Below, in pieces: positions 5,451 through 63,339 of a DNA stretch of 64,000 nucleotides (position 1 is the first letter of the stretch; each line of letters begins with the position of its first letter). The stretch lies in the NCBI GenBank assembly GCA_034437215.1, contig DAOTVC010000039.1, positions 35,188 through 99,187 on the forward strand. Reading direction: 5' to 3'. The notes below the pieces were generated by a model. The model had not been told where the DNA came from. It saw nothing but the letters and a program-made list of their open reading frames with translations, and made no database searches. The stretch is from Anaerolineae bacterium (GTDB lineage Bacteria; Chloroflexota; Anaerolineae; B4-G1; SLSP01). The translations under genes and the position numbers were made by a program.

Positions 5451-5470
5451 AGCAGTTACTAGGGGGATGC

Positions 5471-5638
5471 CTGCCGTAGGCGGGGCAATCCCTGCCGTAG
5501 GCGGGGCAATCCCTGCCGTAGGCGGGGCAATCCCTGCCGTAGGCGGGGCAATCCCTGCCGGAGGCGGGGCAATCCCTGCCGTAGGCGGGGCAATCCCTGC
5601 CGGAGGCGGGGCAATCCCTGCCGGAGGCGGGGCAAGCA
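5471..5638. repeat. Tandem direct repeat of a 21-bp unit CTGCCGTAGGCGGGGCAATCC, about 8 copies, some with the T-to-G variant GGAGG. Flanked by the 12-bp inverted repeat GGGATGCCTGCC (5464-5475) ... GGCAGGCATCCC (5641-5652)
   Basis: Counted directly in the sequence. Intergenic between glnA and the NUDIX gene. ORFs 5410..5658(-) and 5467..5787(+) are artefacts of the in-frame 21-bp periodicity. Confidence 0.9.
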
Positions 5639-5668: not shown

Positions 5669-6124
5669 ATGGAGCCAGAACAGATTCCCGTCCTCTATGC
5701 CGTCGCCGGGGGGGTCGTCTACGACATACAAAAGCGCCAGGTGGTGGTGCTCATCCGCCCCTCCCGGGACGAGATCCGGCTGCCTAAAGGCCATATCCTG
5801 CCCGAGGAGAACCCCGAGCAGGCAGCCCTGAGGGAGATCACCGAGGAGACGGGCTATTCCGATCTGGAGATCGCCCTCACACTCGGAGAGCAGTTGGTCG
5901 TTTTTCCCTTCGGCAAGCACACTATTCGGCGCACGGAGTACTACTACCTGGTCTACCTCCGTTCGGAGCAGCAGGTGGAGCGCCCGCCTGCCGACGAGGA
6001 GGAGTTCTTCCCCATCTGGATCTCTCTGAACGAAGCCCTGGAGCACCTCACCTTTGAGGCCGAGCGCGAGTGGATCCGGCGGGCGCAGGCCTACCTCATA
6101 GAGCGCCGCGAAGATGGCGCGTGA
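5669..6124 (+). CDS. NUDIX hydrolase
   Basis: Nudix box GHILPEENPEQAALREITEETGY (G-x5-E-x7-REUxEExGU). RBS AAGGAGGA upstream. Confidence 0.8.
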   Translation: MEPEQIPVLYAVAGGVVYDIQKRQVVVLIRPSRDEIRLPKGHILPEENPEQAALREITEETGYSDLEIALTLGEQLVVFPFGKHTIRRTEYYYLVYLRSEQQVERPPADEEEFFPIWISLNEALEHLTFEAEREWIRRAQAYLIERREDGA

Positions 6125-7800: not shown

Positions 7801-9144
7801 ATGAATGAGGCAAATTCGCACAAATTATGGCGCGCCACCTTGGGAGAGCTGGAGTTGCAGATGACGCGCGCCACCTTTGACACCTGGCTACGAGACACCC
7901 GTTGTCTGGGTTTGGAAAACGGAGAGACCCTGGTCATCGGTGTCAAGAACGGGTACGCGGTCGAGTGGCTGGAGAACCGCCTTCAACCCATCGTACAGCG
8001 CACCCTGCAGCACATTGCCGGAAAAAGTCTAGAAACACGCTTTGTGGTGTGGGAGGGTAATCGCACCCCGCCCCCGCCACCGCTTCTTCAGGGGGAGAGC
8101 ATGGATGTCGTCACCACTCCGGTTCCCGATCCAGGTCTGAATGAAGAGTATACCTTCCAGGACTACGTCGTGGGGCCGGGCAACCGGTTGGCGCAGGCGG
8201 CCTCCCAGGCCGTCGCCGAGGCACCGGCCCGCGCTTACAACCCCCTCTTCCTCTACGGCGGTGTGGGGTTGGGTAAGACCCATCTCCTCCACGCCATCGG
8301 TCAGATCTCCTACAGGCAGGGTCTGCAAGTCCTCTACATCTCCTCCGAGCAGTTTACCAACGACCTGGTCGAGGCCATCCGCACCCACACCACCGATGCC
8401 TTTCGGGATAAGTACCGCAACGCTGAAGTCCTCCTCGTCGATGACATTCAATTTATCGCCGGCAAAGAGAGCACCCAGGAGGAGTTCTTCCACACCTTCA
8501 ACGCCCTCCGCGATACCGGACACCAGATCGTTCTCAGCAGTGACCGCCCGCCCAAGGCTATGATCACCCTTGAGGAGCGCCTGCGGTCGCGCTTCGAGTG
8601 GGGCCTGATCGTCGACATCCAACCCCCGAATTTCGAGACCCGGTTGGCCATCCTGCGCAAGAAGGCCCATCGGCGCGGCGTGAAGATCTCGGACAGTGTG
8701 CTGGAGTTCATCGCCAGCAACGTCGAGAGCAACATCCGCGAGCTCGAGGGCGCTCTCAACCAGCTCCTGGCGCTCTCACGCCTCACGGGCTTGCCGCTAA
8801 ACCTGGAGACTGCTCAGCAGGCCCTCACCGACCTGCTCCCCAGCCGCCCCACCCTGACGGCCGAGGAGATCATCGAGATGGTCTCTACCTACTACAACCT
8901 CACCGTGGACGAGCTGCGGAGCCCTCGTCGCAGCCGCAGGATCGCCTTTCCCCGCCAGATTGCCATGTACCTGATCCGGGAGGAGACCGATTCCTCCCTG
9001 CCCCAAATCGGAGCGCAGCTGGGCGGCAGAGATCATACGACCATTCTCTACGGCTACGAGCGCATCCGCACCACCCTGGAAGAGGACCCCCAACTGCGAC
9101 GCGAGATCCTGACGCTCAAGTCACGCCTCTACGAACGCAACTAA
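7801..9144 (+). CDS. dnaA: Chromosomal replication initiator protein DnaA
   Basis: AAA+ Walker A GVGLGKTHLL and C-terminal DnaA-box binding domain (RRIAFPRQIAMYL). The ORF track starts at 7714, but the conserved N-terminus begins at MNEANSHKLW (ATG 7801). Confidence 0.9.
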   Translation: MNEANSHKLWRATLGELELQMTRATFDTWLRDTRCLGLENGETLVIGVKNGYAVEWLENRLQPIVQRTLQHIAGKSLETRFVVWEGNRTPPPPPLLQGESMDVVTTPVPDPGLNEEYTFQDYVVGPGNRLAQAASQAVAEAPARAYNPLFLYGGVGLGKTHLLHAIGQISYRQGLQVLYISSEQFTNDLVEAIRTHTTDAFRDKYRNAEVLLVDDIQFIAGKESTQEEFFHTFNALRDTGHQIVLSSDRPPKAMITLEERLRSRFEWGLIVDIQPPNFETRLAILRKKAHRRGVKISDSVLEFIASNVESNIRELEGALNQLLALSRLTGLPLNLETAQQALTDLLPSRPTLTAEEIIEMVSTYYNLTVDELRSPRRSRRIAFPRQIAMYLIREETDSSLPQIGAQLGGRDHTTILYGYERIRTTLEEDPQLRREILTLKSRLYERN

Positions 9145-42696: not shown

Positions 42697-43110
42697 TTAG
42701 GACTTCTTGGTTCCGTACTTGGAACGCCGCTGCTCACGCCCCTCAACACCGGTAGTGTCCAGGGTCCCGCGCACGATGTGATAACGCACACCGGGCAGAT
42801 CCTTTACACGACCACCCCGCACGAGCACCACGGAGTGCTCCTGAAGGTTATGGCCCTCACCGGGGATGTAAGCCGTGACCTCCACACGATTCGAGAGACG
42901 CACGCGCGCGATCTTCCGCAAGGCCGAGTTCGGCTTCTTGGGGGTGGTGGTCCGCACGATCGTGCAGACGCCCCGCTTCTGCGGATTCCCGCCCTCAACG
43001 CGCACCCGCTTGCCCTTCAACGTATTGTAGTTGTAGAGCAGCGCGGGAGACTTGGACTTGCTCTCCTTGCGTTTTCGTCCCTTACGCACCAACTGATTAA
43101 TCGTAGGCAC
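42697..43110 (-). CDS. rpsL: 30S ribosomal protein S12
   Basis: [22 protein letters not shown].. Confidence 0.9.
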
Positions 43111-43270
43111 TTATCTTCCTCCTAATAACTCCACTGAAGAAGGCCATCGAGAAACATTGATGGCCTCTTCGTTGCGACCTTATTCAGATTTTAACGGGCG
43201 ACAGGGTATCTGGCTGTCACCCTCTTGCGAAAGCACATTCTACCATGAAAGCGAAAAACGTCAACTGCAG

Positions 43271-43312
43271 CTAACAAAAAGGGTGTGGCTGTAAAAGATC
43301 GCAGCCACACCC
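43271..43312 (-). terminator. Intrinsic terminator downstream of rpoB: 11-bp stem GGGTGTGGCTG/CAGCCACACCC followed on the minus strand by a U-tract (plus-strand AAAAAG at 43275-43280)
   Basis: Seen in the sequence between the rpoB stop and the rpsL promoter region. Confidence 0.55.
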
Positions 43313-43333
43313 TACCTCTCAACTCCCGGGCGC

Positions 43334-46300
43334 CTACCGTCGCTCGGGCGCCAATCCCAGCAGGCCCATACCCAACTTGGGCGTCTGAGCCTGCCGCTCC
43401 TCCCGCCCAAAGCGCAAGACGTCGCCCGAGTCGGTGATGGCTTCCACCGCGAGGGCCAGACTCTGCAGCTCCTTGACGAGCACCTTGAAGGAGGCCGGAA
43501 TCCCCGGCTCCTCGATGGGCAGGCCCTTGACGATGGACTCGTAGGCCTTTACCCGCCCCTGCACATCGTCCGATTTGATGGTCAGCATCTCCTGCAGGGT
43601 GTAGGCGGCCCCGTAGGCCTCCAACGCCCAGACCTCCATCTCACCGAAGCGCTGCCCACCGAACTGGGCCTTACCGCCCAACGGCTGCTGCGTCACCAGG
43701 GAGTAGGGGCCGGTCGAACGCGTGTGCACCTTGTCCTCCACCAGGTGGGCCAACTTGAGCATGTAGATAATGCCCACAGTCACCGGTTGGTCGAAGGGGC
43801 GTCCCGTCTTGCCGTCATACAACATCATCTTGCCCAGCGTGGGCAGGGAAGAGTTGTGCTGCAGGCTGTAACTGGTCGCCGTGTGGACGATCTCTTCGTC
43901 GGAGAGCCCCTCGGTGGACATCCCCTGCTCCTCCATCCAGAGCTTCAGACAGACCACCTGGGCCTGCTCGTCCACGGCGTCGCGCTGCGCCCGCGGGCGG
44001 TCGTCGTCCTCGAAGGTTAACACGCTGTCGGGATCGTACCCCAACTCCCGCAACCACTCGCGCAGCACCGAGCGCCGGGCATAGGTGCGATCGTCCCGCA
44101 GGCGATCAATGTCGTAGTCCAGCTGGGAGAGCCAGGCAGCGACGTAGATCAAGCGGGCTTCGTCATCGTCGCGCAGCTGCTCCAGATCGAAGTTCTGGGC
44201 CTTGAGCCAGGTCCACGCGCGCTCCAGGGCCTCTTCCCAGGCACGGTCGATGAGCCAGGCGCGCGCCATCTCGGCGGCGATCTCCTGCTCGTTCGCCCCG
44301 TCGAAGACCGGGGTGATGGTGCGGAAGCCCAGACGCTCCGCCGCCCACCCCAAGTGGGTCTCCAGCACCTGACCGATATTCATACGACCGGGTACGCCCA
44401 GGGGGTTGAGGATGATGTCGATGGTCCGCCCGTCGTCGAGGAAGGGCATGTCCTCCACCGGCACGACCTGGGAGATGACACCCTTGTTGCCGTGGCGCCC
44501 GGCCATCTTGTCGCCCTCGGTGATCTTGCGCCGCTGGGCCACGCTCACCCGCACGACCTTCTCCACACCCGCGGGCAGGTCTCGATACTCTTCGCGGTCA
44601 AAGACCTTGACGTCCACGACCTTGCCGTGGGCCCCGTGAGGCATACGCAGGCTCGTGTCCTTCACATCCCGCAGCTTCTCTCCGAAGATGGCGCGCAGGA
44701 GCTTCTCCTCGGGCGTGAGCTCCTTCTCGCCCTTCGGCGTGATCTTGCCCACCAGAATGTCCAGGGGCCCGACCTCGGCCCCCACGCGGATGACCCCCTC
44801 TTCGTCGAGGTCACGCAGGGCGTCGTCAGAGACGTTGGGAATCTCCCGAGTGACCTCCTCGGGTCCCAGCTTCGTATCGCGGGCCGTCAGCTCGTGCTTC
44901 TCGATGTGAACCGAGGTGAACTGGTCGTCGCGCACCAGATCCTTGCTGAGGAGAATGGCGTCCTCGTAGTTGCCCCCCTCCCACGACATGAAGGCGACGA
45001 GCACGTTCTGGCCCAGGGCCAGGTTGCCCCCCTCCGTCGAGGAGCTGTCGGCGAGCACCGTCCCCTTCTGCACCCGCTGTCCCCGGCGCACCACGGGACG
45101 CTGGTCCACGCAGGTGCTCTGGTTGGAGCGTTGATACTTCCGCAGCTCGTAGCTCTCCAGATTACCGTCGTCCCCCAATACGACGATCTCGTATCCGGAG
45201 ACGCCGATGACCACACCCGACTTACGGGCGCTGATGACGAGCCCGGAGTTCGCCGCTGCCGGACCCTCCATCCCAGTCCCCACGAGCGGGGCCTCGGGCT
45301 GAATGAGGGGCACGGCCTGGCGCTGCATGTTCGAGCCCATGAGAGCGCGGTTGGCGTCGTCGTGCTCCAGGAAGGGGATGAGAGAGGCGGAGATGCCGAC
45401 GATCTGAATGGGAGCTACGTCGACGAAGTCGATGCGCTCGGGTGTGGTGAAGATGAACTGGTCACCCCGCCGGGCAGCGATGCGCCGCAGGCGGAAGTAG
45501 CCCTCTTCGTCGAGCAGGGTGTTGGCCTGGGCGATGACGTAGGGCTCCTCCTTGTCCGCCGAGAGGTAGATGACCTCGCCCGTTACGCGAGGTTGAATCC
45601 GCACCGGATCCTTCAGCGGCAGCGCCGCAATCCGCTCGGCGAGTTCCCGGTCGATCTGCGTGCCCGCCGCCGCGACGACGTCCCCGCTCTCCGGGTCCTC
45701 AAGATCGTCCCGCAGCGTCTCGCCGACCAGCTGCTCGGCGATGTTGGGCACCACACGGATGACCTTCCGGTAGGGGGTCTCGATGAAGCCCAAGTCATTG
45801 ATGCGCGCGTAGGAGCCCAGGCGACCGATGAGGCCAATGTTCGGACCCTCGGGGGTCTCGATGGGGCAGATACGCCCGTAGTGGCTGTGGTGCACGTCGC
45901 GGACGTCGAAGCCGGCGCGCTCACGGCGCAGACCACCGGGGCCCAACGCCGACAGCGTGCGCTTATGGGTGAGGCTGGAGAGCGGGTTGGTCTGCTCCAT
46001 AAACTGTGAGAGCTGGCTGGAGCCGAAGAACTCGCGGATGGAAGCGACCACCGGGCGGATGTTGATGAGGCTGACGGGGGTCGGGGACTCGTCGCGGATA
46101 CTCATCCGCTCCTTGACCACCCGCTCCATCCGCACCAGACCCACACGCACCTTGGCCTGGACCAGCTCCCCGACGGTCTTCACCCGGCGGTTGCCCAGGT
46201 GGTCCATGTCGTCGGGGCCGGCGACGCCGTTGTTGATGTGGATCATACGCCGCGTCAGATTGACGAGGTCTTCCTTCGTGATGGTCCGCACCGCCATGGG

Positions 46301-47236
46301 CACGTTCAAGCCCATGCGCTGGTTCAGCTTGTAGCGCCCCACCCGCTGCAGGTTGTAGCGCTGGGAGTCGAAGAGCTGGGAGATCATGTACTCCTGAGCA
46401 TTCTCGAGGGTGGGCGGATCGCCGGGGCGCATGCGCCGGTAGAACTCGATGAGCGCCTCTTCGGCGACGGTGCGGTTGTTCTTGGGATCCCAGGTCGGCT
46501 CCTGGCGGATGGTGGTGGCGACCCAGGGGTGATCGGGATCGTTGTCGGCTTCCTCGAAGAGCTGGAAGAGCTCCTCGTCCGTCCCCTCCACGAGCACGTC
46601 ACTGTGCAGCTCGTCATCGACGGCAGCCAGGGCGCGCAGGAAGATGGTGATGGGGATGGTGCGTTTGCGGTTGAAGCGCAGGGTGAGGTAGCCGGACTTC
46701 CGGGTCTCGAACTCCATCCAGGCTCCCCGATCGGGGATGAGCTTGGCGGTCGCCAGACGGCGTCCCCCCTCTTCGTCCATCCCGAAGTAGACACCCGGCG
46801 AGCGAATGAGCTGGCTGACGACGACGCGCTCCGTCCCGTTAATGATAAAGGTGGCGTTCTCGGTCATCAGGGGCAGATCCCCCAGGAAGATCTCCTGCTG
46901 GACGATCTCGCTCGTCTCCCGGTTCACCAGGGCCACGTCCACGTAGAGAGGCACGGCGTAGGTTAGATCGCGGTTTAAGCACTCTTCACGGGAGTGCTTG
47001 GGCTCTCCAAAACGATAGGAGAGATCGAAGTCGGCCTCGCGGGCCCTCTTGCCCGGCAGATAGAGGCTCAACAGGCCGTTGTAGCTCTCGATGGGTGAAA
47101 TTTCGTCAAAGAGGTTCTGCAGCCCCTCTTCCTGCAACCAGTGATAAGATTGTAACTGAACTTCGACAAGACCGGGTAGCGGCAAAGCGCTAGAAATGCG
47201 TGCGTACGACTTTACTCCCAGGTCAGTTGTTGTCAT
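43334..47236 (-). CDS. rpoB: DNA-directed RNA polymerase beta subunit; rpoC is not adjacent
   Basis: 1300 aa with the conserved beta-subunit regions. The next gene downstream is rpsL, not rpoC. Confidence 0.95.
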
Positions 47237-47440
47237 CCTTAATCCTCTCCTCTTGGAGTTCTCCAGAAATCCCCCGCCGGATTCTGTGGACCAATGCGCA
47301 GCTTTACTTTAAACGCCAAACGGAAGCGAGGAAAATGCCCGCTTCTCGTTGTAATCCTGTCTGTAGCGATATCTCAAGCGATTGAGTATTATACCATGTC
47401 TCCTGCAGGCGTCAAAGGGGCTTTGGATATTCAAGCAGGA

Positions 47441-47596
47441 CTGCCCTGGAAAAACTCCTTCCAACACGGAGAACACCGAGAAAACCAAGGAGATAGTGAA
47501 ACATCTTTATAAAAAGCGCTCTTGTGCCTGATTTTATGAAGTCCGATTTAAAAAATCTCCGTGCCCTCTGTGGTAAAAAGGCTTTTTTCAGCAGAG
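47441..47596. mobile_element. MITE-like ~156-bp palindromic element, copy 1, flanked by a perfect 10-bp direct repeat TCAAGCAGGA (47431-47440 and 47597-47606)
   Basis: Seen in the sequence. Terminal inverted repeats (CTGCCCTGGAAAAA.. / ..TTTTTTCAGCAGAG) and internal ACGGAGA / TCTCCGT symmetry. Homologous copies at 49606-49762 and 63197-63330. Confidence 0.55.
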
Positions 47597-47643
47597 TCAA
47601 GCAGGAATTTTGGATATCCCGGAGCAGGAAGCCCTGTAGGCCC

Positions 47644-48354
47644 TCAAGCAAGCGCGCTGTCCGGCCGGCGCTCCGGAGACCCGGGGGCCGGTGCAGTCCC
47701 GTCCCCCGCCTCCAGCTGCGCGACGTCACCGGCGTAGGCACCCCGGTAGGAGGGGGGCAACAGGCGCGCGATGCGCACCATAATCCGCTGGGTGGCCACC
47801 GCCAGCTCCTCGGAGCGCAACCGCCCCTCTTTCTCCAGGCGGAAGGGCTCCCCGAAGACCACCCGCACCTTCATCCGCTGCAACCGTCGAAGGCGCGACC
47901 CCATCTGCTCCGTACCCGTGATGGCGACGGGCAGGAGGGGCACGTGAGCGTGGGCCGCCAGGAAGGCCACCCCGGGCTTTCCCGGCTGCAGGGAGGCCGT
48001 TCTCGAACGTGTGCCCTCCGGCGCCAGCCCCAACACCTTGCCCTCCTCGAGGAGCTGCAAGGCCTGCATCAGCGCGCTGCGGTCGAACTCGGAGCGCCGC
48101 ACCCAGATGGGATCGGTCATCTTCAAGAACCAGTGGAAGAAGGGGTAGGATTTATACTTTTCCGCCACCATCCCGTAGACCCGTCGGGGACAGGCGATGC
48201 CGAGCAGGGGCGTGTCCAGCCGGCTGATATGATTCGTCGCCAGAATCAGCCCCCCCTCGGAGGGCACGTTCTCCGCCCCCACGACCTCGATGCGCGCAAG
48301 CAGACGAAAGAGCAGCGCGACGGCCTTCTGCAATCTACGAAAGCTGGTATCCAT
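47644..48354 (-). CDS. plsC: 1-acyl-sn-glycerol-3-phosphate acyltransferase (PlsC family)
   Basis: Acyltransferase HxxxxD motif (NHISRLD) and PEGTRS motif. Confidence 0.75.
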   Translation of the reverse strand: MDTSFRRLQKAVALLFRLLARIEVVGAENVPSEGGLILATNHISRLDTPLLGIACPRRVYGMVAEKYKSYPFFHWFLKMTDPIWVRRSEFDRSALMQALQLLEEGKVLGLAPEGTRSRTASLQPGKPGVAFLAAHAHVPLLPVAITGTEQMGSRLRRLQRMKVRVVFGEPFRLEKEGRLRSEELAVATQRIMVRIARLLPPSYRGAYAGDVAQLEAGDGTAPAPGSPERRPDSALA

Positions 48355-48423: not shown

Positions 48424-49452
48424 TCACCCGGTCGTGCCCCAGGTCAGGACGGCATAGTCAGCCGGCTCGATGCCCCCCTTGGGCGTCAGCAGGACGGTGA
48501 AAGCAGCGCTCTCCCCGGAGGCGAGCGCCTGCTCCGCTGCCAACACCGCCTCCCGGTAGGCGATGACCTGGCCCTCCGCATCGTAGAGGGTGACGACGAC
48601 GGTCACGGGGCTCACAGGGGAGGGTGTGTCGTTGAGCACCCGACCGGCCACGCGGTACTGGGGGCCCGAGACCCCCGCCTGCAACTCGAGCAGGGTGAGG
48701 GGGACGAAGCCGGCGGTGATCGCACTGATCAGCTCCGCCCGCCGCAGGCTCACGCGCGCCTCCGCCGCTCCGGGCGGGGGGCTCTCGAAGAGCAGTGCGA
48801 AGGGCGCCCGCTTCCCCGGAGACAGATAGTCGGCGGCAGCCAGCGTGTTCTCGGTCACGAGGGGCGTTCCCCCGGCATCCAGCAGCGTCACCTGCACCTG
48901 CAGATTCGTGACGGGATTGGCCGTGGCGTTGACCACCTCGCCCATGCACCAGAGCCCTCCCACCGCCGTCGGGTAGAGCCCCACCCCCGAGGCCTCCAGG
49001 GGTATGGGCGTCGGTGTGGGTAACAAGAGATTATCGATGGGAAGAGGAGCAGCGACCTCCGCTTCCTCCTCGGTCGAGCGCAAGGGGATGACGAGGGACT
49101 GCCCGATGCTCAAGGCGTTCGGATCGTCGATCCCGTTGGCCGCCTGCAGGTCCTCCACGGCCACCCCATACTCGAAAGCGATGCCGAAGAGGGTGTCCCC
49201 CGACTCCACGATGTGCATGACGGGCGTCGGCGAGGGGGAGGGCGTGAAGGTGGGCGTGGGCAGAATGGGCGTCCTGAAGGACTCGGGATCAGCGGTAGGT
49301 GGACGCTGGGGGGCATTGGGCGCCAGGGCCTCGGTCGCCGTAGGGGAGGGCAGGGGCGTGAGAACGGTACCACAGCCGGACGCCAGAAGCAGCATCGCTA
49401 ACAGCGCCAACCGGCTCCTCACCCCGCTCATCCCTCTGCCTTGGCCTCTCAC
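48424..49452 (-). CDS. Secreted lipoprotein with one LysM domain and C-terminal repeated beta-rich domains
   Basis: Signal and lipobox LLASGC; LysM (HIVESGDTLFGIAFEYGVAVEDL..); the remainder is hypothetical. Confidence 0.6.
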   Translation of the reverse strand: MRGQGRGMSGVRSRLALLAMLLLASGCGTVLTPLPSPTATEALAPNAPQRPPTADPESFRTPILPTPTFTPSPSPTPVMHIVESGDTLFGIAFEYGVAVEDLQAANGIDDPNALSIGQSLVIPLRSTEEEAEVAAPLPIDNLLLPTPTPIPLEASGVGLYPTAVGGLWCMGEVVNATANPVTNLQVQVTLLDAGGTPLVTENTLAAADYLSPGKRAPFALLFESPPPGAAEARVSLRRAELISAITAGFVPLTLLELQAGVSGPQYRVAGRVLNDTPSPVSPVTVVVTLYDAEGQVIAYREAVLAAEQALASGESAAFTVLLTPKGGIEPADYAVLTWGTTG

Positions 49453-49537
49453 AGAGGAGAATTATAACACAGACTTCGTGAAAAACCAGTCATACAAATC
49501 TCAAACTTGTATACCCCCACTTGAGCCAGACCAAGGC

Positions 49538-49590
49538 GTGAAACGTGAACTGTGAGCCCCTCACGTTTCACGCTGTACGTTTCAGCCAGG
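49538..49590. promoter_or_regulatory. Palindromic element GTGAAACGTGA-N12-TCACGTTTCAC upstream of the LysM lipoprotein gene promoter; same motif family as the site at 1237-1275
   Basis: 11-bp perfect inverted arms seen in the sequence, about 45 nt upstream of a candidate extended -10 (TGTTATAAT, minus strand) for the 48424..49452 gene. Confidence 0.35.
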
Positions 49591-49605
49591 GGTAGCTCAT
49601 AACTG

Positions 49606-49762
49606 ACTGCCCTGAAAAAACTTCTTCCACCACGGAGAACACTGAGAAAATCAAGGAGATAGTGAAATATTTTTATAAAAACGCTCTGTTTCCTGATTTT
49701 ATGAAGGTCAATTTTAAAAAAATCTCCGTGCCCTCTGTGGTAAAAAGGCTTTTTTCAGCAGA
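49606..49762. mobile_element. MITE-like element, copy 2, flanked by TCATAACTGA / TCATAACTGG (9 of 10 bp target-site duplication)
   Basis: About 85% identical to copy 1 with the same termini. Confidence 0.55.
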
Positions 49763-50066
49763 GTCATAACTGGAGGGGAACCCTAGTGTTTTGTCAAGTG
49801 TCAATTGATGAACGTGCATGGCGTCTTATCAGCCGGGGTAACTCGACTGCAGTCGCTATCCGAGGCGCTAACGCACCGCACGCCGACCTACGTCGACGCG
49901 AGTTCCGTCCACGCAGGTGGACGGTCGGCCAACGGCCCCGGTAGAGTACTTCAGTGCTCGTTTGTGGCTGTTTATCAAATCAGGTTTGACAAACCACTAG
50001 AGTGATCAGCGACTGGAACGTGCCTCGCATCAGATGTGAGAAAACACGGGCACCAGGCGGCTGCTG

Positions 50067-51065
50067 CTAGCTCTCGGCGCTCTCGGCCTCCGCGATGATG
50101 TCCCCCTGACGCAGGGCCTCCCGGGAGATCTCGAAACGCGGCTGTACCTTTCGCCAGAGGTAGAGCCCGCCCAGCACCAACCAGGGCACCCCCAGAGCGC
50201 CCAGCAGGAAAGCGGGGTGGGGCAGATGGGGCGCGCCCGAGAAGCGGTCGAGGTTGAAGAGGATGAGGACGATGGCCGTCCAGACCGTGAGGAAGTTGGG
50301 GATGGCATCCCCGGAGTGAATGGCCCCCAGACCGGGCGTGCGCTTCTTGGTCAGGGGCCAGAAGAGGTTGCTGCCCATGTAACCGCTCTGATCTTCGATC
50401 ACGTGGCCTGCAAAGCCCAGCCCCATCACGATCCCCGCCCACCTCCCCAGGAGCAGGGCTGCGACGAGCCCCAGCAGCAGGGCGACGACGAGGCTGTGGG
50501 TCCAGCGCCGGTGCCAGTCGAGGAAGTGGACGTAGAGCTTACCCTCCTCACGGGCGAAGCGAAAGGAGGGCCCGCTGAAGATGTTGATCTTGTACTCGGA
50601 GCTGTAGGTGTGGACGAGGGGCACGTCGAGCTTGCGCCGGGCCTCCGCGACCCCCTCGGGCTCCGTACCCGCGTAGGGCACCTGGCCGGTGTTGACCAGC
50701 GGCCCTACCCGCACGGCCACCTCACCGGCCTCGGGGTCGAAACGGATGGCGTACTCCCGCCAGAGATCCGGCCCCAGCCGGATGGTGTGCGCCATCACGT
50801 TCTGCGGTCGTCCCGACGCGTAGGCCTCCTGCATGGCAGCGACGAGAGCGTCGGCGATGGCCTCGGGGTCGGGGTCCGCTTCCGCCTCGATCTCCAGGTC
50901 GTACCTCTCGAAGTAGCGGGCGAACTTGAAGTCGAGGGTGTCGGGCAGGATCCCGCCGACGCCGCCCAGCATGGGCAAGAGAGCGCCGTCGGCTCCCGCT
51001 GCGACCACCTCGGGAAAGAAGGTCGCCAGCGCCACGCCCGTGATGAAGTGCGAGATACCTTTCAT
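50067..51065 (-). CDS. Membrane protein, possibly a DUF457/YdjM-type membrane-bound metal-dependent hydrolase carrying a ~140-aa soluble insertion
   Basis: N-terminal HFITGVALA.. and C-terminal H..D..LFWPL-type segments; family assignment is tentative. Confidence 0.35.
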   Translation of the reverse strand: MKGISHFITGVALATFFPEVVAAGADGALLPMLGGVGGILPDTLDFKFARYFERYDLEIEAEADPDPEAIADALVAAMQEAYASGRPQNVMAHTIRLGPDLWREYAIRFDPEAGEVAVRVGPLVNTGQVPYAGTEPEGVAEARRKLDVPLVHTYSSEYKINIFSGPSFRFAREEGKLYVHFLDWHRRWTHSLVVALLLGLVAALLLGRWAGIVMGLGFAGHVIEDQSGYMGSNLFWPLTKKRTPGLGAIHSGDAIPNFLTVWTAIVLILFNLDRFSGAPHLPHPAFLLGALGVPWLVLGGLYLWRKVQPRFEISREALRQGDIIAEAESAES

Positions 51066-51215: not shown

Positions 51216-52628
51216 TCAGTGCTGGCGCCGCAGGTTCATCGGGTAGCGGCTGCGCAGACGCCCCCCACCCCGCTTCCCCCACCCGAGCGGCAAACCGTCG
51301 ACGGTGACGAGGACGTGGCCCGCGAGCCCTTCGTCGGGCCAGAAGCCGCCCCGCAGGAACTTGGCGATCCGCGGGTCGTCGGGCGCCAGGGAGATCGTAG
51401 TGGTCGCCTCCGAGGGCCGCAGCGCCATCGCCAGGGCGTGATTGGGCTCCACGCGTCCGTGGCGCAGGCTCGCCACCCACCAGCCGGGTCGCAGCACCCG
51501 CAGCCCCTCCCAGTAAGAGGGGGCCAGCGGCACGACGTAGAGCTGGTCGTCGGAGCTCAAGACCAGCCCCGCCTCCGGGGGCGCGCCCTGCAGGGCGGGT
51601 CCCACCCACTCCCGGTAGAGATTCAACACCCGTCCGGGCACCTCGTTGGCCTCCCACTGCAGCGGTAGAGGCCCGGCAGGCTCACCCCGCCGGTGGAGCA
51701 GCGCGTAGAAGTGCCCGTGTCCGGGCCCCCGGTGGGGCCAGAAGCGCCCCGCACCCCGCAGGGTCTCCGGCGCCCCCACCCACTCGGGGTGCCCGGGATA
51801 GAGTCCCGGGAGATCGGGGAGAGTCGCCACCTCGAAGTCGGGATGGGCAGCGAGAAAGGCGGCGACGGTGCCCTCGTTCTCCTCCGGGGAGAAGGTACAG
51901 GTGCCGTAGAGGAGGCGTCCGCCCGGACGGACGAGGGGCGCGGCTTGATCCAGAATCCCCTGCTGGCGGTGCGAGTAGGTTTTCACCGTTTCCCCGCTCC
52001 AGTCGGCGAGGGAGCGTGGGTCGCGCGCGAAGGTCCCCTCCCCCGAACAGGGTGCGTCCACGAGCGCCGCGTCGAAGAGCCCGGCCCACCGCTCCGCCAG
52101 GCGGTCGGGGTACTCGTTGGTGATCAGAGCCTGGGTCACCCCCATCCGCTCGACGTTCATCGCCAACACCGAAGCCCGGTGGCGGTGTACCTCGTTGGCC
52201 ACGAGCACGCCCTGGTTTTCCATCCGCGCTGCGAGGTGGGTGGCCTTGCCGCCGGGGGCTGCGGTCAGATCGATCACCCACTCGCCGGGCCGGGGCTGCA
52301 GCAAGCAGGCGGCGGCCATCGCGCTGGGGTCCTGGACGTAGTAGAGCCCGGCGGTGTGGTAGGGGTGGCGGCCCACCGCCTCCTCGTCCTCGGGGAACCA
52401 GCGCCCTTCAGCGCACCAGGGCACCGGCTCCGTCTCCCAGGGGAGACGGGCGAGCAGCTCGGGGAGCGCTCCCCGAGCTGCATTCAGACGGAGGCCGACG
52501 TCCCGCCGGGCCAGGGCCGCCAGGAAGGGTTCGAGCTCCCCGGCGCCCAGCCATGCGGCCATCCGCTCGCGGAAAGCCGCAGGCCAATCAGGCTGCCCCT
52601 CAACCCCATTCACATCCCCACCCCGCAA
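51216..52628 (-). CDS. 16S rRNA (cytosine-C5) methyltransferase of the RsmB/RsmF (NOL1/NOP2/Sun) family
   Basis: SAM-binding DLTAAPGGKAT and catalytic DAPCSGEG motifs; 470 aa suggests RsmF-like. Confidence 0.8.
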   Translation of the reverse strand: MRGGDVNGVEGQPDWPAAFRERMAAWLGAGELEPFLAALARRDVGLRLNAARGALPELLARLPWETEPVPWCAEGRWFPEDEEAVGRHPYHTAGLYYVQDPSAMAAACLLQPRPGEWVIDLTAAPGGKATHLAARMENQGVLVANEVHRHRASVLAMNVERMGVTQALITNEYPDRLAERWAGLFDAALVDAPCSGEGTFARDPRSLADWSGETVKTYSHRQQGILDQAAPLVRPGGRLLYGTCTFSPEENEGTVAAFLAAHPDFEVATLPDLPGLYPGHPEWVGAPETLRGAGRFWPHRGPGHGHFYALLHRRGEPAGPLPLQWEANEVPGRVLNLYREWVGPALQGAPPEAGLVLSSDDQLYVVPLAPSYWEGLRVLRPGWWVASLRHGRVEPNHALAMALRPSEATTTISLAPDDPRIAKFLRGGFWPDEGLAGHVLVTVDGLPLGWGKRGGGRLRSRYPMNLRRQH

Positions 52629-56861: not shown

Positions 56862-57959
56862 CTACTGGCTGGACCCCAGATAGGTGTCCCAGCCGGTGTC
56901 GATCTCGCCGTCGATGATGCTCTGGCGAATGTTCTCCACCTCGCCCATCACCTCCTCGGCGACCACACCCTCAGTGACGGGGGCGATGCCCACGCCGTCG
57001 TTCTCCAGCGTGCCGATGTAGGGCGCCTGCCCCTCGAAGTTCTCGAAGTCGGGCTCCAACATCAGGGCGATGGTATCGTAGACGGCGTTGTCCATCCACT
57101 TCACCACGCTGGTCAGGACGATGTCGGCGTACTCGGGAGCGCTGAAGGTCCAGTCGGTGTCCACACCGATGATCCAGGCGTCGCCCTGCTCCTGCACGGC
57201 CTGCGCGGAGCCCAGCCCCACGGGACCGGCGACGGGCATGATGACGTCGGCGCCCTCGGACAGGAACTCCTCGGCCACCCGGCGCCCATCGGAGGTGGAC
57301 TCGAAGTTGCCGACGAAGACGCCGTCCGCCTCTGCGGTGCTCCACCCTAACAGCTCCACGTCGGCGTCGTGCTGCTCGTTGTAGTACTCGACGCCCGACT
57401 GGAAGCCGACCATGAAGATGGTCACGGTGGGGATCTTGATCCCGCCGTAGGTGGCGACGATGCCGGTCTGGGTCGCGGCTGCGGCCAGGTATCCGGCCAG
57501 GAAGCCGGCCTCGTCGGTGGCAAAGCTCAGACCCCGGACGTTCAGGTATTGACCGCCGTAGTCGTAGTCGACGATGGCAAACATCGTCTCGGGGTTCTGC
57601 TGGGCAAACTCCTCGGTGGCGTCAGCGAGCAGGAAGCCGACGGTGACGATCAGATCGGTCTCCTGCCGGAGCAGCTGGTTGATGTTCGTAGCATAGTCGG
57701 TCTGCTGCTGGGACTCCAGCACCGTGCCCTCGACGTTCAGCTCCTCCCTGGCGCGTTCAACGCCCCGCCAGGAAGTCTGGTTGAAGGAGCGGTCGTCCAC
57801 GCCGCCGATGTCGGTGACCATGCCGACGAGGAGAGTCGGCTCCTCCGGCGTCTCCTCGGTGGGCGCCTCCGTCGGAGTCGCTTCGTCTCCCCCACAGGCG
57901 GTCAGCAGCATGCTGACCACGACGAACAGACTCAGTAACATCCACAAACTCTTACGCAT
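56862..57959 (-). CDS. BMP-family (PnrA-like) ABC substrate-binding lipoprotein
   Basis: Lipobox LLTAC; BMP-family sequence. ATG at 57959 has an AGGAGGG RBS; the track ORF is extended to 58022. Confidence 0.8.
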   Translation of the reverse strand: MRKSLWMLLSLFVVVSMLLTACGGDEATPTEAPTEETPEEPTLLVGMVTDIGGVDDRSFNQTSWRGVERAREELNVEGTVLESQQQTDYATNINQLLRQETDLIVTVGFLLADATEEFAQQNPETMFAIVDYDYGGQYLNVRGLSFATDEAGFLAGYLAAAATQTGIVATYGGIKIPTVTIFMVGFQSGVEYYNEQHDADVELLGWSTAEADGVFVGNFESTSDGRRVAEEFLSEGADVIMPVAGPVGLGSAQAVQEQGDAWIIGVDTDWTFSAPEYADIVLTSVVKWMDNAVYDTIALMLEPDFENFEGQAPYIGTLENDGVGIAPVTEGVVAEEVMGEVENIRQSIIDGEIDTGWDTYLGSSQ

Positions 57960-58261
57960 TGGTATCCCTCCTGCTAAAGTTAACAATCGTACCGACCGCC
58001 AGATTCTCCTCTGCTTTCGCACACCTCCTTAGATTAGGAACTGGGACTTGTTGGTCAGTGGGCCCGGAGGATCCGCAGGTACCAAGTGGGACGCGGTCCC
58101 TGGGCGCCTCTACCTTCAATTATACTCCAGCCGCTTGAGGGTCGCAATTGGCGCCCCCAGGTGGGGGCGCTTCAGGGACAACAACAGACGAGGACGGAAG
58201 GTGGGCACAAGTAAGGAGGGGGTGGATCACCACCCCCTCCTTGAATGGGTACGAGAAGTGC

Positions 58262-60373
58262 TTACTCGCTCAGGCCGGCCAGGTAGGCGCTCCAACCGGT
58301 TTCAATGTCCCCGGCGATGATGCCCTGCTTGACCTGCTCGATCTCGTCCAGCACCTCGGCAGAGACGGCGCCGCTGGCGACGGGGGCGATGCCCACACCG
58401 CTGTTCTGCAGCGTGCCCAGGTAGGTCTCCCCACCGAAGCTCGAGAAGTTCTCGCGGGCCACCTTCTTAATAGTGTCGAAGACTGCCACGTTCATGTTCT
58501 TGAGGACGCTGGTGAGGATGATCTCCTCGTACTCACCCGCGCTCACCGCCCAGTCGGTGTCCACGCCGATGATCCAGGCGTCACCCGCCTCTTTCACCGC
58601 CTGCGCGGAGCCCAGCCCCACGGGACCGGCGACGGGCATGATGACGTCGGCGCCCTCGGCCAGGAACTCCTCGGCCACCCGGCGCCCGTCGTCCGTCGAC
58701 TCGAAGTTGCCGACGAAGACGCCGTTGTTCTCGGCGGTGTTCCAGCCCAGAACCTCGACGTCGGCGTCGTACTGCTCGTTGTAGTAGGCCACACCGGCCT
58801 CAAAACCCACCATGAAGATGGTCACGGGCGGGATATTGATGCCCCCGAAGGTAGCCACCCGGCCCGTCTGCGTGGCCGCCGCCGCCGCGTAGCCGGCGAG
58901 GAAGCCCGCCTGATCGGTGGCAAAGGTCAGCCCGCGCACGTTCTCGATGGGGGGATCGTAGGCGAAATCGACGATGGCGAAGTTGGTATCGGGGTTGTCC
59001 TGCGCGAACTGTGCCGTGTCGTCGGCCAGCAGGAAGCCCACGGTCACGATGAGATCGGTATCCTGCTGCAGGTACTGGGTGAGGTTGGTGGCGTAGTCCG
59101 TCTGCTGCTGGGACTCCAGGTAGGAGCCCTCGACGTTCAGCTCGGTTATGGCCCGGACGATGCCCTGCCAGGCCGTCGCGTTGAAGGACTTGTCGTCGAT
59201 GCCGCCGATGTCGGTCACCATCCCGACGGAGATCTCGCGGTACTCGGGCTCCGCGGGGGCCACCCCCAGGGACTCGAGGTAGGCGCCCCAACCCGTTGCC
59301 AGCTCACCGGCGATAATCTGCCCCTTGATCTGCTCCAGCTCCTGGCGCAGATCAGCGTCGATGGTGCCCTCAGCAACCGCGGCGATACCCACGCCGTTGT
59401 TCTCCAGCGTGCCCAGGTAGGGCTCCCCGCCGAAGTCGGTGAAGCCGGGGGCGGCCACCCTCTCGATGGTGTCGAAGACCGCCACGTCCATGTTCTTGAG
59501 GACGCTGGTGAAGATGACGTCCTCGTACTCGGGCGCGCTCACCGCCCAGTCGGTGTCCACGCCGATGATCCAGGCGTCACCCGCCTCTTTCACCGCCTGC
59601 GCGGAGCCCAGCCCCACGGGACCGGCGACGGGCATGATGATGTCGGCGCCCTCGGCCAGGAACTCCTCGGCCACCCGACGCCCGTCGTCCGTCGACTCGA
59701 AGTTGCCGACGAAGACCCCGTTGTTCTCGGCGGTGTTCCAGCCCAGAACCTCGACGTCGGCGTCGTGCTGCTCATTGTAGTAGGCCACACCGGCCTCAAA
59801 ACCCACCATGAAGATGGTCACGGGCGGGATATTGATGCCCCCGAAGGTAGCCACCTTGCCCGTCTGCGTGGCCGCTGCCGCCGCGTAGCCGGCGAGGAAA
59901 CCCGCCTCGTCGGTGGCGAAGGTCAGCCCGCGCACGTTGGGGTAAGCGCCGCCGTAGGAGTAGTCGACGATGGCGAAGTTGACATCGGGGTTGGATTCCG
60001 CGAACTGCGCCGTGTCGTCGGCCAGCAGGAAGCCCACGGTCACGATGAGGTTGGCGTCCTGCTGCACGTACTGGGTGATGTTGGTGGCATAGTCCGTCTG
60101 CTGCTGGGACTCCAGGTAGGAGCCCTCGACGTTCAGCTCCTCGATGGCGCGCTCGATGCCCTGCCAGGCCGTCGCGTTGAAGGATTTGTCGTCGATACCG
60201 CCGATGTCGGTCACCATGCCGACGAGGAGAGTCGGCTCCTCCGGCGTCTCCTCGGTGGGCTCCTCCGTTACCGGCGGCTCCGTCGGTTCGGGCACCGGCG
60301 TGGGCCGGCAGGCACCCAGCAACATCGAGACGACGAGCACCAGGCTCAACAGTAACCAAAACTTCTTCTGCAT
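58262..60373 (-). CDS. Fused tandem-duplicated BMP-family substrate-binding lipoprotein (two complete BMP domains, 703 aa)
   Basis: Lipobox LLGAC. The two halves are about 90% identical to each other and to the downstream single substrate-binding protein. Confidence 0.8.
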   Translation of the reverse strand: MQKKFWLLLSLVLVVSMLLGACRPTPVPEPTEPPVTEEPTEETPEEPTLLVGMVTDIGGIDDKSFNATAWQGIERAIEELNVEGSYLESQQQTDYATNITQYVQQDANLIVTVGFLLADDTAQFAESNPDVNFAIVDYSYGGAYPNVRGLTFATDEAGFLAGYAAAAATQTGKVATFGGINIPPVTIFMVGFEAGVAYYNEQHDADVEVLGWNTAENNGVFVGNFESTDDGRRVAEEFLAEGADIIMPVAGPVGLGSAQAVKEAGDAWIIGVDTDWAVSAPEYEDVIFTSVLKNMDVAVFDTIERVAAPGFTDFGGEPYLGTLENNGVGIAAVAEGTIDADLRQELEQIKGQIIAGELATGWGAYLESLGVAPAEPEYREISVGMVTDIGGIDDKSFNATAWQGIVRAITELNVEGSYLESQQQTDYATNLTQYLQQDTDLIVTVGFLLADDTAQFAQDNPDTNFAIVDFAYDPPIENVRGLTFATDQAGFLAGYAAAAATQTGRVATFGGINIPPVTIFMVGFEAGVAYYNEQYDADVEVLGWNTAENNGVFVGNFESTDDGRRVAEEFLAEGADVIMPVAGPVGLGSAQAVKEAGDAWIIGVDTDWAVSAGEYEEIILTSVLKNMNVAVFDTIKKVARENFSSFGGETYLGTLQNSGVGIAPVASGAVSAEVLDEIEQVKQGIIAGDIETGWSAYLAGLSE

Positions 60374-60647: not shown

Positions 60648-63131
60648 CTACTCCTCGACGAGCGGCTCCGCGACCTCGGCCTCGACACTCCCGGGCACGT
60701 CCTCCGACTTCTCGAAGGTCAACTCGCCCTCCACCTCGTCGATGAGGATCACGTCTCCGGCCGTGAAGCCATCGCCCAACAGGCTGACGCTCAGGGGGCT
60801 TTCGACGTAACGCTGGATGGCACGGCGCAGGGGACGGGCACCGAATTGGCTGTCATACCCCTGCTCGGCAAGCCAACGCTTCGCCTCGGACGTCAGGCTG
60901 ACCCGCAGGTCAAACTCCGCGAGACGCTCCTTCACCTCGAGCATCTGCAGGTCGACGATCTGCTCGACGTCCTCCACCGAGAGGTGGTTGAAGACGATGA
61001 TCTCGTCGACGCGGTTGATGAACTCGGGCCGGAAGGTCCGCTTCAACTCCGAGAGCATCCGGCGCCGCGTCTCCTCCTCCTGAGCGTCCCCGGCCTGCAC
61101 GAAGCCGATGGCCCCGCCCTGTCGCAGGTACTCGGTCCCCACGTTGGAGGTCATAATGACCACGGTGTTGCGGAAGTCCACCGTGCGCCCCTGTCCGTCG
61201 GTGAGGCGCCCCTCGTCGAGGATCTGCAGCAGGGCGTTCCAGATGTCGGCGTGGGCCTTCTCGATCTCGTCGAAGAGCACCACCTGGTAGGGGCGGCGCC
61301 GCACCGACTCGGTGAGCTGCCCCCCCTGATCGTAGCCCACGTAACCCGGAGGCGCTCCGAAGAGCCGGGAGACGGTGTGCCCCTCGCGGTACTCGCTCAT
61401 GTCCACCCGCAGCAGGGCGTCCTCGTCGTCGAAGAGGAAGGCCGCCAGCGCCTTGGCCGTCTCGGTCTTCCCCACACCGGAAGCGCCCAGAAAGAGGAAG
61501 GAGCCGATGGGGCGGCGGGGATCCTTCAGACCGGCACGGGCGCGGCGGATGGCGTCGGCGATGGCCTGGATGGCCTCGTCCTGCCCGATGATCCGCTCCT
61601 GAACGGCCTCCTCCATGCGCAGCAGCTTCTTGGCCTCCGCCTCCAGCACCTGCGCCACGGGGATCCCCGTCCAGGCGGAGACGACGTCGGCGATGTCCTC
61701 AGCCTCGACGGTCTCGTCCAACTGGTGGCTCTCCAGCCACTCCTCCCGCTTCTTGCCGAAGACCTGTTCCAGCCGCAGGCGCTGGGTCTTGATGTCGGCA
61801 GCGCGCTCGTAGTCCCGCGTGTTCCCGGCGGACTCCTCCTCCTTGCGCAGCTTATTGATCTCCGCCTCCATCCGCTTGAGGTCAGGGGGCAGGGTGAAGA
61901 GCGCCACGCGCAACTTCGCCGCCGCCTCGTCCATCAAATCGATGGCCTTATCGGGGAGATGGCGGTCGGTGACGTAGCGGTGAGAGAGGCGGGCCGCCGC
62001 TGCCAGAGCGGCGTCGGAGATGCGCACCTTGTGGTGGGCCTCGTAGCGGTCGCGCAGCCCCTTCAGCATCTGGATGGTGTCCTCCACCGAGGGTTGCTCC
62101 ACGAAGACGGGCGCGAAACGGCGTTCGAGAGCGCCGTCCTTCTCGATGTACTGCCGGTACTCGTCCAGCGTCGTCGCGCCGAGAGCCTGCAACTCCCCAC
62201 GGGCCAGGGCGGGCTTGATCATGTTGGAGGCGTCGAGCGCGCCGGCGGCGTTGCCCGCACCGACCACCGTATGCAGCTCGTCAATGAAGAGGATGATCTC
62301 CCCCTCGGCGCGCTGCACCTCCTCCAGAATCCCCTTCAGACGCTCCTCGAACTCACCCCGGAAGCGGGTCCCGGCGACCAGGGCCCCCAGGTCCAGCTGC
62401 ACGAGGAGCTTGCCCTTCAGAATCTCGGGTACGTCGTCGGTGGCGACGTGCTGCGCCAGCCCCTCGACGATGGCCGTCTTCCCCACGCCCGGCTCGCCGA
62501 TGAGCACGGGGTTGTTCTTCGTGCGCCGCACGAGGATCTGGATCACCCGCTGGATCTCGGCGTCCCGCCCGATGACCGGATCGAGCTTCTGCTCGCGGGC
62601 CATCTGGGTCAGGTCACGGCTGTACTTCTCGAGAATGCGGTAGCCGGACTCCGCACGGGGCGTCGTCACATGCTGCCCCCCGCGCATCTCCTGAATGGCC
62701 TCGAGGGCCAGGTCGCGGGTCACGCCGTACTCCTGGAAGAGCCGGGCGACGGAGGTATTGCGCTCGTGCAAGATGGCGAGGAAGAGATGTTCGGTGGAGA
62801 TGTACTCGTCCTTGAGCTTGTTCGCCTCCTCCTGGGCCAGATCCAGCACCCGCTTGACCCGCGGGGTGATGAAGACCTGCTGACCGCCCCGGGCGCCGTA
62901 GATGCCGGGGCGCACGTTCTCGCGCAGCAGCTTGTCCAGCTCCGTGGCCAACTCCGTGGGCTCGGCGCCCATATCGCGGAGCAGCTCGGAGACCGTGCCC
63001 TCGGGCTGTTGGATGAGCGCCAGCAGGAGGTGCTCCACGTCCACCTGGCTGTGACCGTACCGGGTCATCAGCTCCACGGCCTGCTGCGCTGCCTGCTGGG
63101 CGCGTTCGGTAAATCGATCAAAACGCATCAT
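60648..63131 (-). CDS. clpC: ATP-dependent Clp protease ATP-binding subunit, ClpC-type (two AAA+ modules, short middle domain, Clp_N repeats)
   Basis: Two Walker A motifs (GEPGVGKT; GASGVGKT). 827 aa with a short inter-domain linker, so ClpC rather than ClpB. Confidence 0.85.
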
Positions 63132-63196
63132 GCTTCTTAACCTCTCAACGGGGACGCCCGTCCCCCTCTGCTGCTGACTATTTATAAGGTAAGGAC

Positions 63197-63330
63197 GGCT
63201 CTTCTGAAGAAAGCTCTCTTACCACGGAGATCACGGAGATTTTTGAAGTTTAACTTTCATAAGAATCTCCATGATTTTCTCAGTATTCTCTGTGTCCTCC
63301 GTGGTGAAATAGAGTTCTTTCAGTAGAGCC
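63197..63330. mobile_element. MITE-like element, copy 3: shorter (~134 bp) derivative in the opposite orientation, flanked by a 6-bp direct repeat AAGGAC
   Basis: The reverse complement aligns with copies 1 and 2 (CACCACGGAG..ATCTCCGTG..), with an internal deletion of about 35 bp. Confidence 0.45.
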
Positions 63331-63339
63331 AAGGACAGG

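Follow-up and report, generated by a model that had tools for sequence, protein, structure and literature searches.

According to a large survey, MITEs (miniature inverted-repeat transposable elements) occur widely and are intergenic and mostly genus-specific; Chloroflexi are not mentioned in its main text (PMC11602168). Judged by analogy, the closest described counterpart in behaviour of the element treated here is MITEAba12 of Acinetobacter, which is 113 bp long, has 16-bp inverted repeats, generates 9-bp duplications in AT-rich targets and keeps intact duplications in 40% of its copies (PMC6382973). Here we describe a family of short palindromic elements, three copies of which (c1, c2 and c3) lie in 64,000 nucleotides of an Anaerolineae bacterium (Chloroflexota; GenBank assembly GCA_034437215.1, contig DAOTVC010000039.1, positions 35,188 to 99,187 of the forward strand), and this whole stretch is called the window in the following. 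The three inserts are very probably copies of a non-coding, non-autonomous MITE family of the Chloroflexota, which is apparently new to description and of the ordinary bacterial repeat kind.

Like MITEAba12, the Chloroflexota elements are short, non-coding and AT-rich, their terminal inverted repeats are imperfect, and they prefer AT-rich intergenic targets, in which about 9 bp are duplicated; in both, the duplications are intact in a fraction of the copies and the presence of a copy varies among related genomes. There is no sequence similarity between the two families, however, and while MITEAba12 shares its 16-bp repeats with the partner insertion sequence (IS) ISAba12, no partner was found for the Chloroflexota family. 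The latter differs further in a two-part inverted symmetry (an outer block plus tandem CACRGAG units) which extends over most of the element, in a strong preference for the target YCA-N4-TGR, and in its uncultured Chloroflexota host.

Two other groups of systems invite comparison. Elements of the IS4 family duplicate about 10 bp of target, roughly a turn of the helix, and 9-bp repeats go with CT ends in the IS10 subgroup (PMC2266710, Table 1). The Chloroflexota elements resemble IS4 members (IS10/IS50) in their CT ends and in a duplication of about one helical turn (9-10 bp), but this likeness compares ends and duplication length alone, with no DDE/YREK transposase linked, and is a mechanistic analogy rather than a membership. 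A symmetric target consensus is preferred by Tn10. Enterobacterial repetitive intergenic consensus sequences (ERIC, or intergenic repeat units, IRU) and Correia-type repeats are imperfect intergenic palindromes of 100-160 bp, which can form long RNA hairpins if co-transcribed and can affect the expression of their neighbours; Correia elements are known to duplicate TA only. The Chloroflexota elements share with them the long imperfect palindrome, the intergenic position and the ability to fold as RNA hairpins, whereas their sequence is unrelated, they duplicate 8-10 bp and they belong to another phylum.

Copies, anatomy and distribution of the family

An earlier reading of the window from its letters alone (the sequence-only reading) had reported three palindromic copies of about 85% identity, with imperfect terminal inverted repeats and an inner ACGGAGA/TCTCCGT symmetry. 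All three copies exist, and both the terminal repeats and the inner symmetry are real. The boundaries given for c1 were correct, while c2 had been placed one base off and c3 at 63197-63330 (for the revised coordinates see Table 1). The identity holds for c1 and c2 only, which agree at 89.9%, whereas c3 is far more diverged and has just 62-65% identity to c1 or c2, whichever orientation is compared. c3 is a separate, diverged subfamily, and its palindrome is closer to perfect than those of c1 and c2. The base composition of the three elements is foreign to their surroundings, with 37-42% G+C compared to 63% in the window. The core motif has 9 matches in the window where 0.4 are expected, and the terminal pattern GTGGTRARA-N4-5-TTYYTTCAGNAGAG has 4 where 0.00 are expected; an nhmmer profile of the element ends found no copy beyond c1-c3 in these 64 kb. 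An origin of c1 and c2 by segmental duplication was considered and is ruled out by their flanks, which are unrelated outside the 10-mers bordering the elements. Our literature search on MITEs in Chloroflexi found no description, and a full-text search with the core motif as a string gave matches only to unrelated eukaryotic primers.

The ends of the family consist of a two-part inverted repeat. The outer block CTCTNCTGAAAAAA has its complement TTTTTTCAGNAGAG at the opposite end. A variable spacer of 8-14 nt leads to the inner block TTCACCACRGAG, which is followed by one or two extra tandem CACRGAG units and is mirrored as CTCYGTGGTGA. In the window one end carries the outer block as CTGCCCTG(G)AAAAA or CTCTTCTGAAGAAA and the opposite end carries it as TTTTTTCAGCAGAG or TTCTTTCAGTAGAG, while the inner block is based on (A)CCACGGAGA / TCTCCGTGG. 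Conservation of the outer CTCTNCTGAAAAAA/TTTTTTCAGNAGAG and the inner ACCACRGAG/CTCYGTGGT in 12 elements gives terminal inverted repeats of the length known from MITEs (at least 10-15 bp). The centre is not conserved between subfamilies, differing freely in both its length and its sequence. With 105-190 bp and no coding capacity the family lies inside the MITE size range of about 50-800 bp, and elements of 105-187 bp are too short for encoding a transposase.

Some members (related loci are given L numbers) keep the termini and have the tandem arm unit exchanged, for a CGCAAAG type in L159, L158 and the second element of L127 (3763-3949) and for a GCCAAGA type in L132 (2841-3187); L153 is also among the members with an exchanged unit. 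In the viral locus L111 a CACAGAG hairpin is nested within a CGCAAAG hairpin, and L127 and L132 each hold two elements, tandem or nested, with a common flank. The element at L130 (2830-2960) has a canonical right end, TATCATCTCAATATTTCGGGGCAG in place of CTCTNCTGAAAAAA at the left end and the flanks TCAAATTATGG / TCAATTATGG; rearrangement or nesting may explain this copy.

Scanning the terminal pattern against one genome per GTDB species gave 13 loci. Nine of them, from six other metagenome-assembled genomes (MAGs; two Anaerolineales, two Anaerolineae, one Thermoflexia and Chloroflexota SpSt-1153), have the full architecture of CTGAAAAAA, spacer, TTCACCACRGAG, more CACRGAG units, variable centre, mirrored CTCYGTG units, GTGGTRARA and TTTTTTCAGNAGAG. 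The remaining four, from outside the Chloroflexota, do not have the inner units and seem to match by chance. Metagenomes added 28 loci. Further copies thus exist elsewhere; the sequence-only reading had named a lack of them as a refuting outcome. Near-identical ends stand next to at least 11 distinct flanks in metagenome Ga0180432 and next to at least five in Ga0129302, which together with the three sites in the window makes the family one of dispersed copies with unrelated flanks. Many metagenome contigs stop within the element, as is expected of a multicopy repeat. A look-up of the acyltransferase next to c1 led to a Logan contig of 2 kb which breaks off at both ends 25-26 nt into an element (c1 and c2), weak evidence for repeat-induced graph breaks. 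The terminal pattern has no match among 2.9 million viral contigs; a looser pattern of outer plus inner block gave 94 matches there, all by chance (none continues with NGAG), and blastn of the copies against plasmid and phage collections returned no match. As defined by its termini, the family is restricted to Chloroflexota in the searched data.

Target-site duplications and empty sites

For eleven full-length elements both ends were placed by pattern or profile, and the 10 nt on each side were compared in register. The flanks match at 10/10 positions in c1, at 9/10 in c2, L127 and L135, at 8/10 in L125 and at 7/10 in c3; L146 (7/8) and L132 (8/11) join them once a boundary slack of 1-2 nt is permitted, and by eye the flanks of L123 agree at 8/10 and L159 shows the 9-bp repeat CATATTATG. 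With this slack, strong in-register repeats of about 9 bp (8-11) border eight of the eleven elements. Scores of 10, 9, 9, 9, 8, 8 and 7 are reached in seven elements from five genomes. The mean flank identity is 6.3-6.5 of 10 compared to 3.8 for all mismatched left/right pairs, and a score of at least 7 is found for 6/10 elements as opposed to 4/90 mismatched-pair controls. That the controls average more than 2.5 is due to a symmetric consensus, YCA-N4-TGR, common to the flanks: of the 28 right flanks all have Y at position 1, 26 have C at position 2 and 25 have A at position 3.

In the seven best cases the matches per position are 5, 4, 7, 7, 7, 7, 7, 7, 6 and 3. The length of the duplication is best estimated as 9 bp, with a range of 8-10 and no fixed value of 10. 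The sequence-only reading had described perfect duplications of 9-10 bp at two copies. Its exact 10-bp repeat at c1 stands, the one at c2 is 9/10 in register, and the decayed duplication of c3 had escaped it. It had further considered the duplications to be of consistent length, and they do recur in independent elements, but 9 bp is likelier than 10 bp. They are not part of a longer shared sequence, as the flanks differ wholly between copies outside the repeat and such repeats recur in other genomes.

The gene order RsmF-YdjM-LysM-acyltransferase-rpoB-rpsL-rpsG-fusA is kept in relatives, which allows the spacers to be compared. The acyltransferase-rpoB spacers of L163 and L167, whose acyltransferases are 83% and 71% identical, respectively, can be aligned starting at the promoter and have no element, and the YdjM-LysM spacers of these relatives are free of c2. 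The third copy is present in the same-species MAG GCA_046541445.1 (L168). It is missing from L169 and L170, two contigs of one relative (ClpC 95% identical) in which the rnc-clpC spacer measures 94 nt and has one GGACTTCC in place of the window's CCTGTCCTTGG-[element]-CCGTCCTTAC (gene strand), and also from L171 (ClpC 88% identical), where this spacer is 29 nt long. All three copies are absent from the syntenic spacers of relatives, and therefore all three insertions are later than the split from the nearest available relatives. Orthologous loci with the sequence and no flanking repeats, which the sequence-only reading had named as a point against insertion, were not encountered: the spacers of the relatives do not carry the sequence at all.

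Table 1. Elements, flanking duplications, inverted-repeat blocks and neighbouring genes with their positions in the window
Feature	Position	Strand	Remarks
MITE copy 1 (c1)	47441-47596	+	156 bp; between acyltransferase stop and rpoB promoter
MITE copy 2 (c2)	49607-49763	+	157 bp; between YdjM stop and promoter region of LysM/DUF3426 gene
MITE copy 3 (c3)	63199-63328	+	130 bp; diverged subfamily, near-perfect palindrome; rnc-clpC spacer
c1 left target-site duplication	47431-47440	.	TCAAGCAGGA; 10/10 match to right
c1 right target-site duplication	47597-47606	.	TCAAGCAGGA; 10/10 match to left
c2 left target-site duplication	49597-49606	.	TCATAACTGA; 9/10 match to right
c2 right target-site duplication	49764-49773	.	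TCATAACTGG
c3 left decayed target-site duplication	63189-63198	.	GTAAGGACGG; 7/10, core AAGGAC
c3 right decayed target-site duplication	63329-63338	.	CCAAGGACAG
Outer terminal inverted-repeat block, left end of c1	47441-47454	+	CTGCCCTGGAAAAA; pairs with 47583-47596; conserved in family
Outer terminal inverted-repeat block, right end of c1	47583-47596	+	TTTTTTCAGCAGAG
Inner arm of c1, left	47464-47481	+	ACACGGAGAACACCGAGA; inverted partner 47556-47573
Inner arm of c1, right	47556-47573	+	TCTCCGTGCCCTCTGTGG
rpoB	43334-47236	-	
rpoB promoter (context, outside element)	47388-47415	-	TTGACG, 16 nt, TG-n-TATAAT; 11/12 consensus matches plus TG
acyltransferase	47644-48354	-	
LysM/DUF3426 protein	48424-49452	-	
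YdjM	50067-51065	-	
RsmF	51216-52628	-	
clpC	60648-63131	-	
rnc	63340 to window end	-	

Mobilisation and alternative explanations

In all features by which a MITE can be tested, the partner IS excepted, the element agrees with this class. Its mobilisation would depend on a DDE transposase acting in trans, which would bind the two-part ends; cleavage of an AT-rich symmetric target YCA-N4-TGR with a stagger of about 9 bp (8-10) would then give rise to the flanking direct repeats. In this GC-rich genome such AT-rich target sites fall in the spacers that reach from the 3' end of a gene to the next promoter or leader, where an insertion would be tolerated, and the copies in the window may be largely neutral passengers. 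Because of the CT ends, the duplication of about 9 bp and the symmetric target, our best guess by analogy is an IS4-family enzyme of the IS10/IS50-like kind. C(T/W) ends together with a duplication of about 9-10 bp are indeed found here, features which are weak and not exclusive to IS4.

The sequence-only reading had taken the element for a non-autonomous one inserted by a transposase. This is supported by the copies elsewhere, the in-register repeats and the absence from relatives, but several observations weigh against a MITE family. The full-length IS with the same terminal repeats, which the sequence-only reading had suggested to look for, did not turn up: neither the window nor about 45 related loci contain an autonomous element or a transposase sharing the termini, nor are there inverted end pairs 0.5-4 kb apart. 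In the part of the source genome that was covered, the 64-kb window, just three copies were seen. The flanking repeats are weak in 3 of the 11 full-length elements (L131, L155 and L122), and for c1 and c2 the relatives show absence of the element alone, as their DNA upstream of the promoters has diverged too far for a base-exact empty site. In L141 (3080-3790) a lone right end of the MITE type, GTGGTAAGATGACTTTTTTCAGGAGAG, closes a 700-nt non-coding stretch located between HTH/M78 and glucan phosphorylase genes, with a HigB-like gene also near. This lone end has no inner repeat units and is not beside a transposase either. Finally, at least 25 of 28 flanks conserve the triplets adjoining the ends, TGR and YCA, which could belong to the element itself.

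The last point leads to a different delimitation, in which the true termini are TGR-CTCT...AGAG-YCA (5'-TG...CA-3', IS3/IS481/Mu-type), the real duplication is 4 bp long (AGCA, TAAC and AGGA for c1-c3) and the partner is IS3/IS481-like. TG...CA ends and duplications of 3-5 bp or more are characteristic of IS3 and IS481. AGAG is followed by YCA in at least 25 of the 28 right flanks, and most left flanks have TGR ahead of CTCT, a conservation as high as that of the inverted repeat, and mismatches within the 10-mer fall on positions 1-2 in c3, L123 and partly L125 and on position 10 in four of seven cases. However, non-consensus bases of the triplets are mirrored distally (GGA in c1 and TGA in L127 on both sides; in c3 and L123 a C at position 8 and a T at position 3, respectively), which is predicted by a duplicated target and not by termini encoded in the element. 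As the target itself would in addition have to read YCA-N4-TGR, the shorter duplication is also less economical, and we consider it unlikely.

Palindromic, intergenic and multicopy elements are also known as repetitive extragenic palindromic (REP) sequences and bacterial interspersed mosaic elements (BIME), which an HUH tyrosine transposase (RAYT) spreads by way of single-stranded hairpins. The Chloroflexota elements share these general properties, and GTAG occurs in many copies within ...CAGTAGAG. REPs have been reported from Chloroflexi, but they are 20-40 bp long and have a conserved GTAG or CGTC tag (PMC3733652). At 105-190 bp the present elements are four to five times longer, and since the 'N' of CAGNAGAG can be T, C, G or A, GTAG is not conserved. 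They are moreover flanked by duplications of 8-10 bp, while transposition of the IS200/IS605-type HUH kind is not known to leave a target duplication. An origin as REP-type palindromes is the least probable of the explanations considered and can hardly be upheld.

Only slightly better are the prospects of an immobile, functional sequence selected by the host, such as a cis-regulatory or structured RNA (a terminator, an RNase III processing hairpin or a small RNA), which we regard as very improbable. All copies are predicted to fold as long hairpins, with -42.4 kcal/mol (z = -3.8) for c1 and -53.9 kcal/mol (z = -6.95) for the minus-strand RNA of c3; the stem is flanked by an A-run and a T-run, and the sites lie between genes. 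c3 directly follows the RNase III gene in a spacer of just 29-94 nt in relatives, because of which rnc and clpC are probably co-transcribed. On the other hand, the element is missing from the equivalent spacers of close relatives, and the centre and even the type of repeat unit are interchangeable between copies. The consensus structure over 12 elements consists of two blocks, CTGAAAAAA/TTTTTTCAG and ACCACRGAG/CTCYGTGGT, both of which are conserved in sequence on each arm. A double change occurs in only 1/18 pairs, and arm covariation was therefore rejected as a sign of RNA function. Conserved arms without compensatory change are what would be predicted for an inverted repeat recognised by a protein and lend no support to a selected RNA fold. 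Rfam has no match at the gathering threshold in the window and 12 related loci, and just chance-level hairpin matches at permissive thresholds; inside the copies neither a terminator-like site, intrinsic ones included, nor a promoter-like site is predicted. Individual copies of the MITE family may nevertheless have been co-opted secondarily.

Genomic context, the inner arm and significance

All genes adjoining the copies are encoded on the minus strand, and each copy lies in a co-directional spacer: c1 is 3' of the acyltransferase gene and 5' of rpoB, c2 is 3' of YdjM and 5' of the LysM/DUF3426 gene, and c3 is 3' of rnc and 5' of clpC. The placement in 3'/intergenic positions next to rpoB and clpC, given in the sequence-only reading, is thus right with respect to the intergenic position, but with neighbours on the minus strand the copies stand 5' of these two genes. 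On the gene strand, the rpoB promoter starts 15 nt downstream of the duplication of c1 and is invariant in L163 and L167, so that c1 is situated between the acyltransferase stop and this promoter. Thereby about 170 bp of AT-rich DNA come to lie directly upstream of the rpoB -35 box, for which an effect on expression would be plausible. Downstream of c2 a conserved TGTTATAAT is found. A hybrid promoter with a -35 box (TTCAGA) at the end of c3 and TATAAA in the flank is possible, judging from these motifs. If transcribed together with rnc and clpC, c3 would add a hairpin with a stem of about 60 bp after the RNase III gene, plausibly a potential substrate of RNase III itself.

In relatives at 71-83% protein identity every base is conserved in the extended -10 promoters of rpoB (TGgTATAAT) and of the LysM gene (TGTTATAAT, about 49480-49500, minus strand), and the spacer DNA around them is not conserved there. 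At 42697-47236 of the window, rpoB is directly followed by rpsL-rpsG-fusA, and it is preceded by the acyltransferase gene; it does not stand in the usual rplJL-rpoB-rpoC order and has no adjacent rpoC, an arrangement kept in three related Anaerolineae contigs (L164, L165 and L167).

The window holds further repeats. A second, unrelated palindromic repeat of 34 nt, sTGAAACGTGAgg...cTCAC...ACGTTTCAC, occupies two intergenic sites (1243-1276 and 49538-49571), with 4 half-site matches where chance would give 0.7. A distance of 26 nt separates the second site from the left duplication of c2, and the repeat is absent from the aligned spacer of relatives. Just after an open reading frame (ORF) ending at 5450 there is a tandem array of 7.9 copies of the 21-bp unit CCTGCCGTAGGCGGGGCAATC with 97% matches (5470-5635). 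Three tandem paralogous modules of Bmp/PnrA-like substrate-binding proteins (56862-60373) share 78-90% DNA identity over blocks of 270-300 nt; two are fused in an ORF of 703 amino acids (58262-60373) and the third is in an ORF of 386 amino acids (56862-58022), upstream of an ABC transporter operon.

A module of about 35 nt makes up the inner arm of the family; its consensus is aTTnACCACrGAG-gA-CACrGAGA-r-CACrGAGg. The pattern TCTCYGTGNNCTCYGTGGT matched more than 120 uncultivated viral contigs (loci L002-L121), which are without the outer termini of the family. In 133 unique occurrences among the matches listed, aTTn stands before ACCAC, and the third CACRGAG unit, not required by the pattern, shows about 87% conservation per position; the viral occurrences are therefore real relatives and not chance matches. 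About 15 full hairpins are among the matches listed, most others being single arms in or beside short spacers (e.g. L064 at 3391-3409, 5742-5760 and 8688-8706; L077; L111 at 701-747 and 1764-1801). Some viral occurrences end in GGAGG 5-10 nt before an ATG, a placing like that of a ribosome-binding site, and some lie in frame within long ORFs. In a crude test, start codons just downstream of the viral motif were not significantly enriched (58/138 compared to 297/690 random positions), and Rfam has no match for the module. There is a small chance that the inner arm is a module conserved across phyla, either an undescribed widespread cis-element (protein-binding or a translation leader) dispersed by the MITE, or the footprint of a larger superfamily of hairpin repeats with swappable units of 9-10 nt.

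MITEs are routine in bacterial genomes, and the present family changes no concept. It does define a repeat family for a poorly studied and mostly uncultured phylum (Chloroflexota, Anaerolineae/Thermoflexia), a family which visibly breaks metagenome assemblies and provides insertion-polymorphism markers between close Anaerolineales lineages. With c1 and c3, AT-rich hairpin DNA has been placed just upstream of the rpoB promoter and in the rnc-clpC spacer, with possible effects on expression or RNA processing. The family also points to a transposase with a strongly symmetric YCA-N4-TGR target, and the one part from which something unexpected might follow is the inner motif that is widespread in viral contigs.

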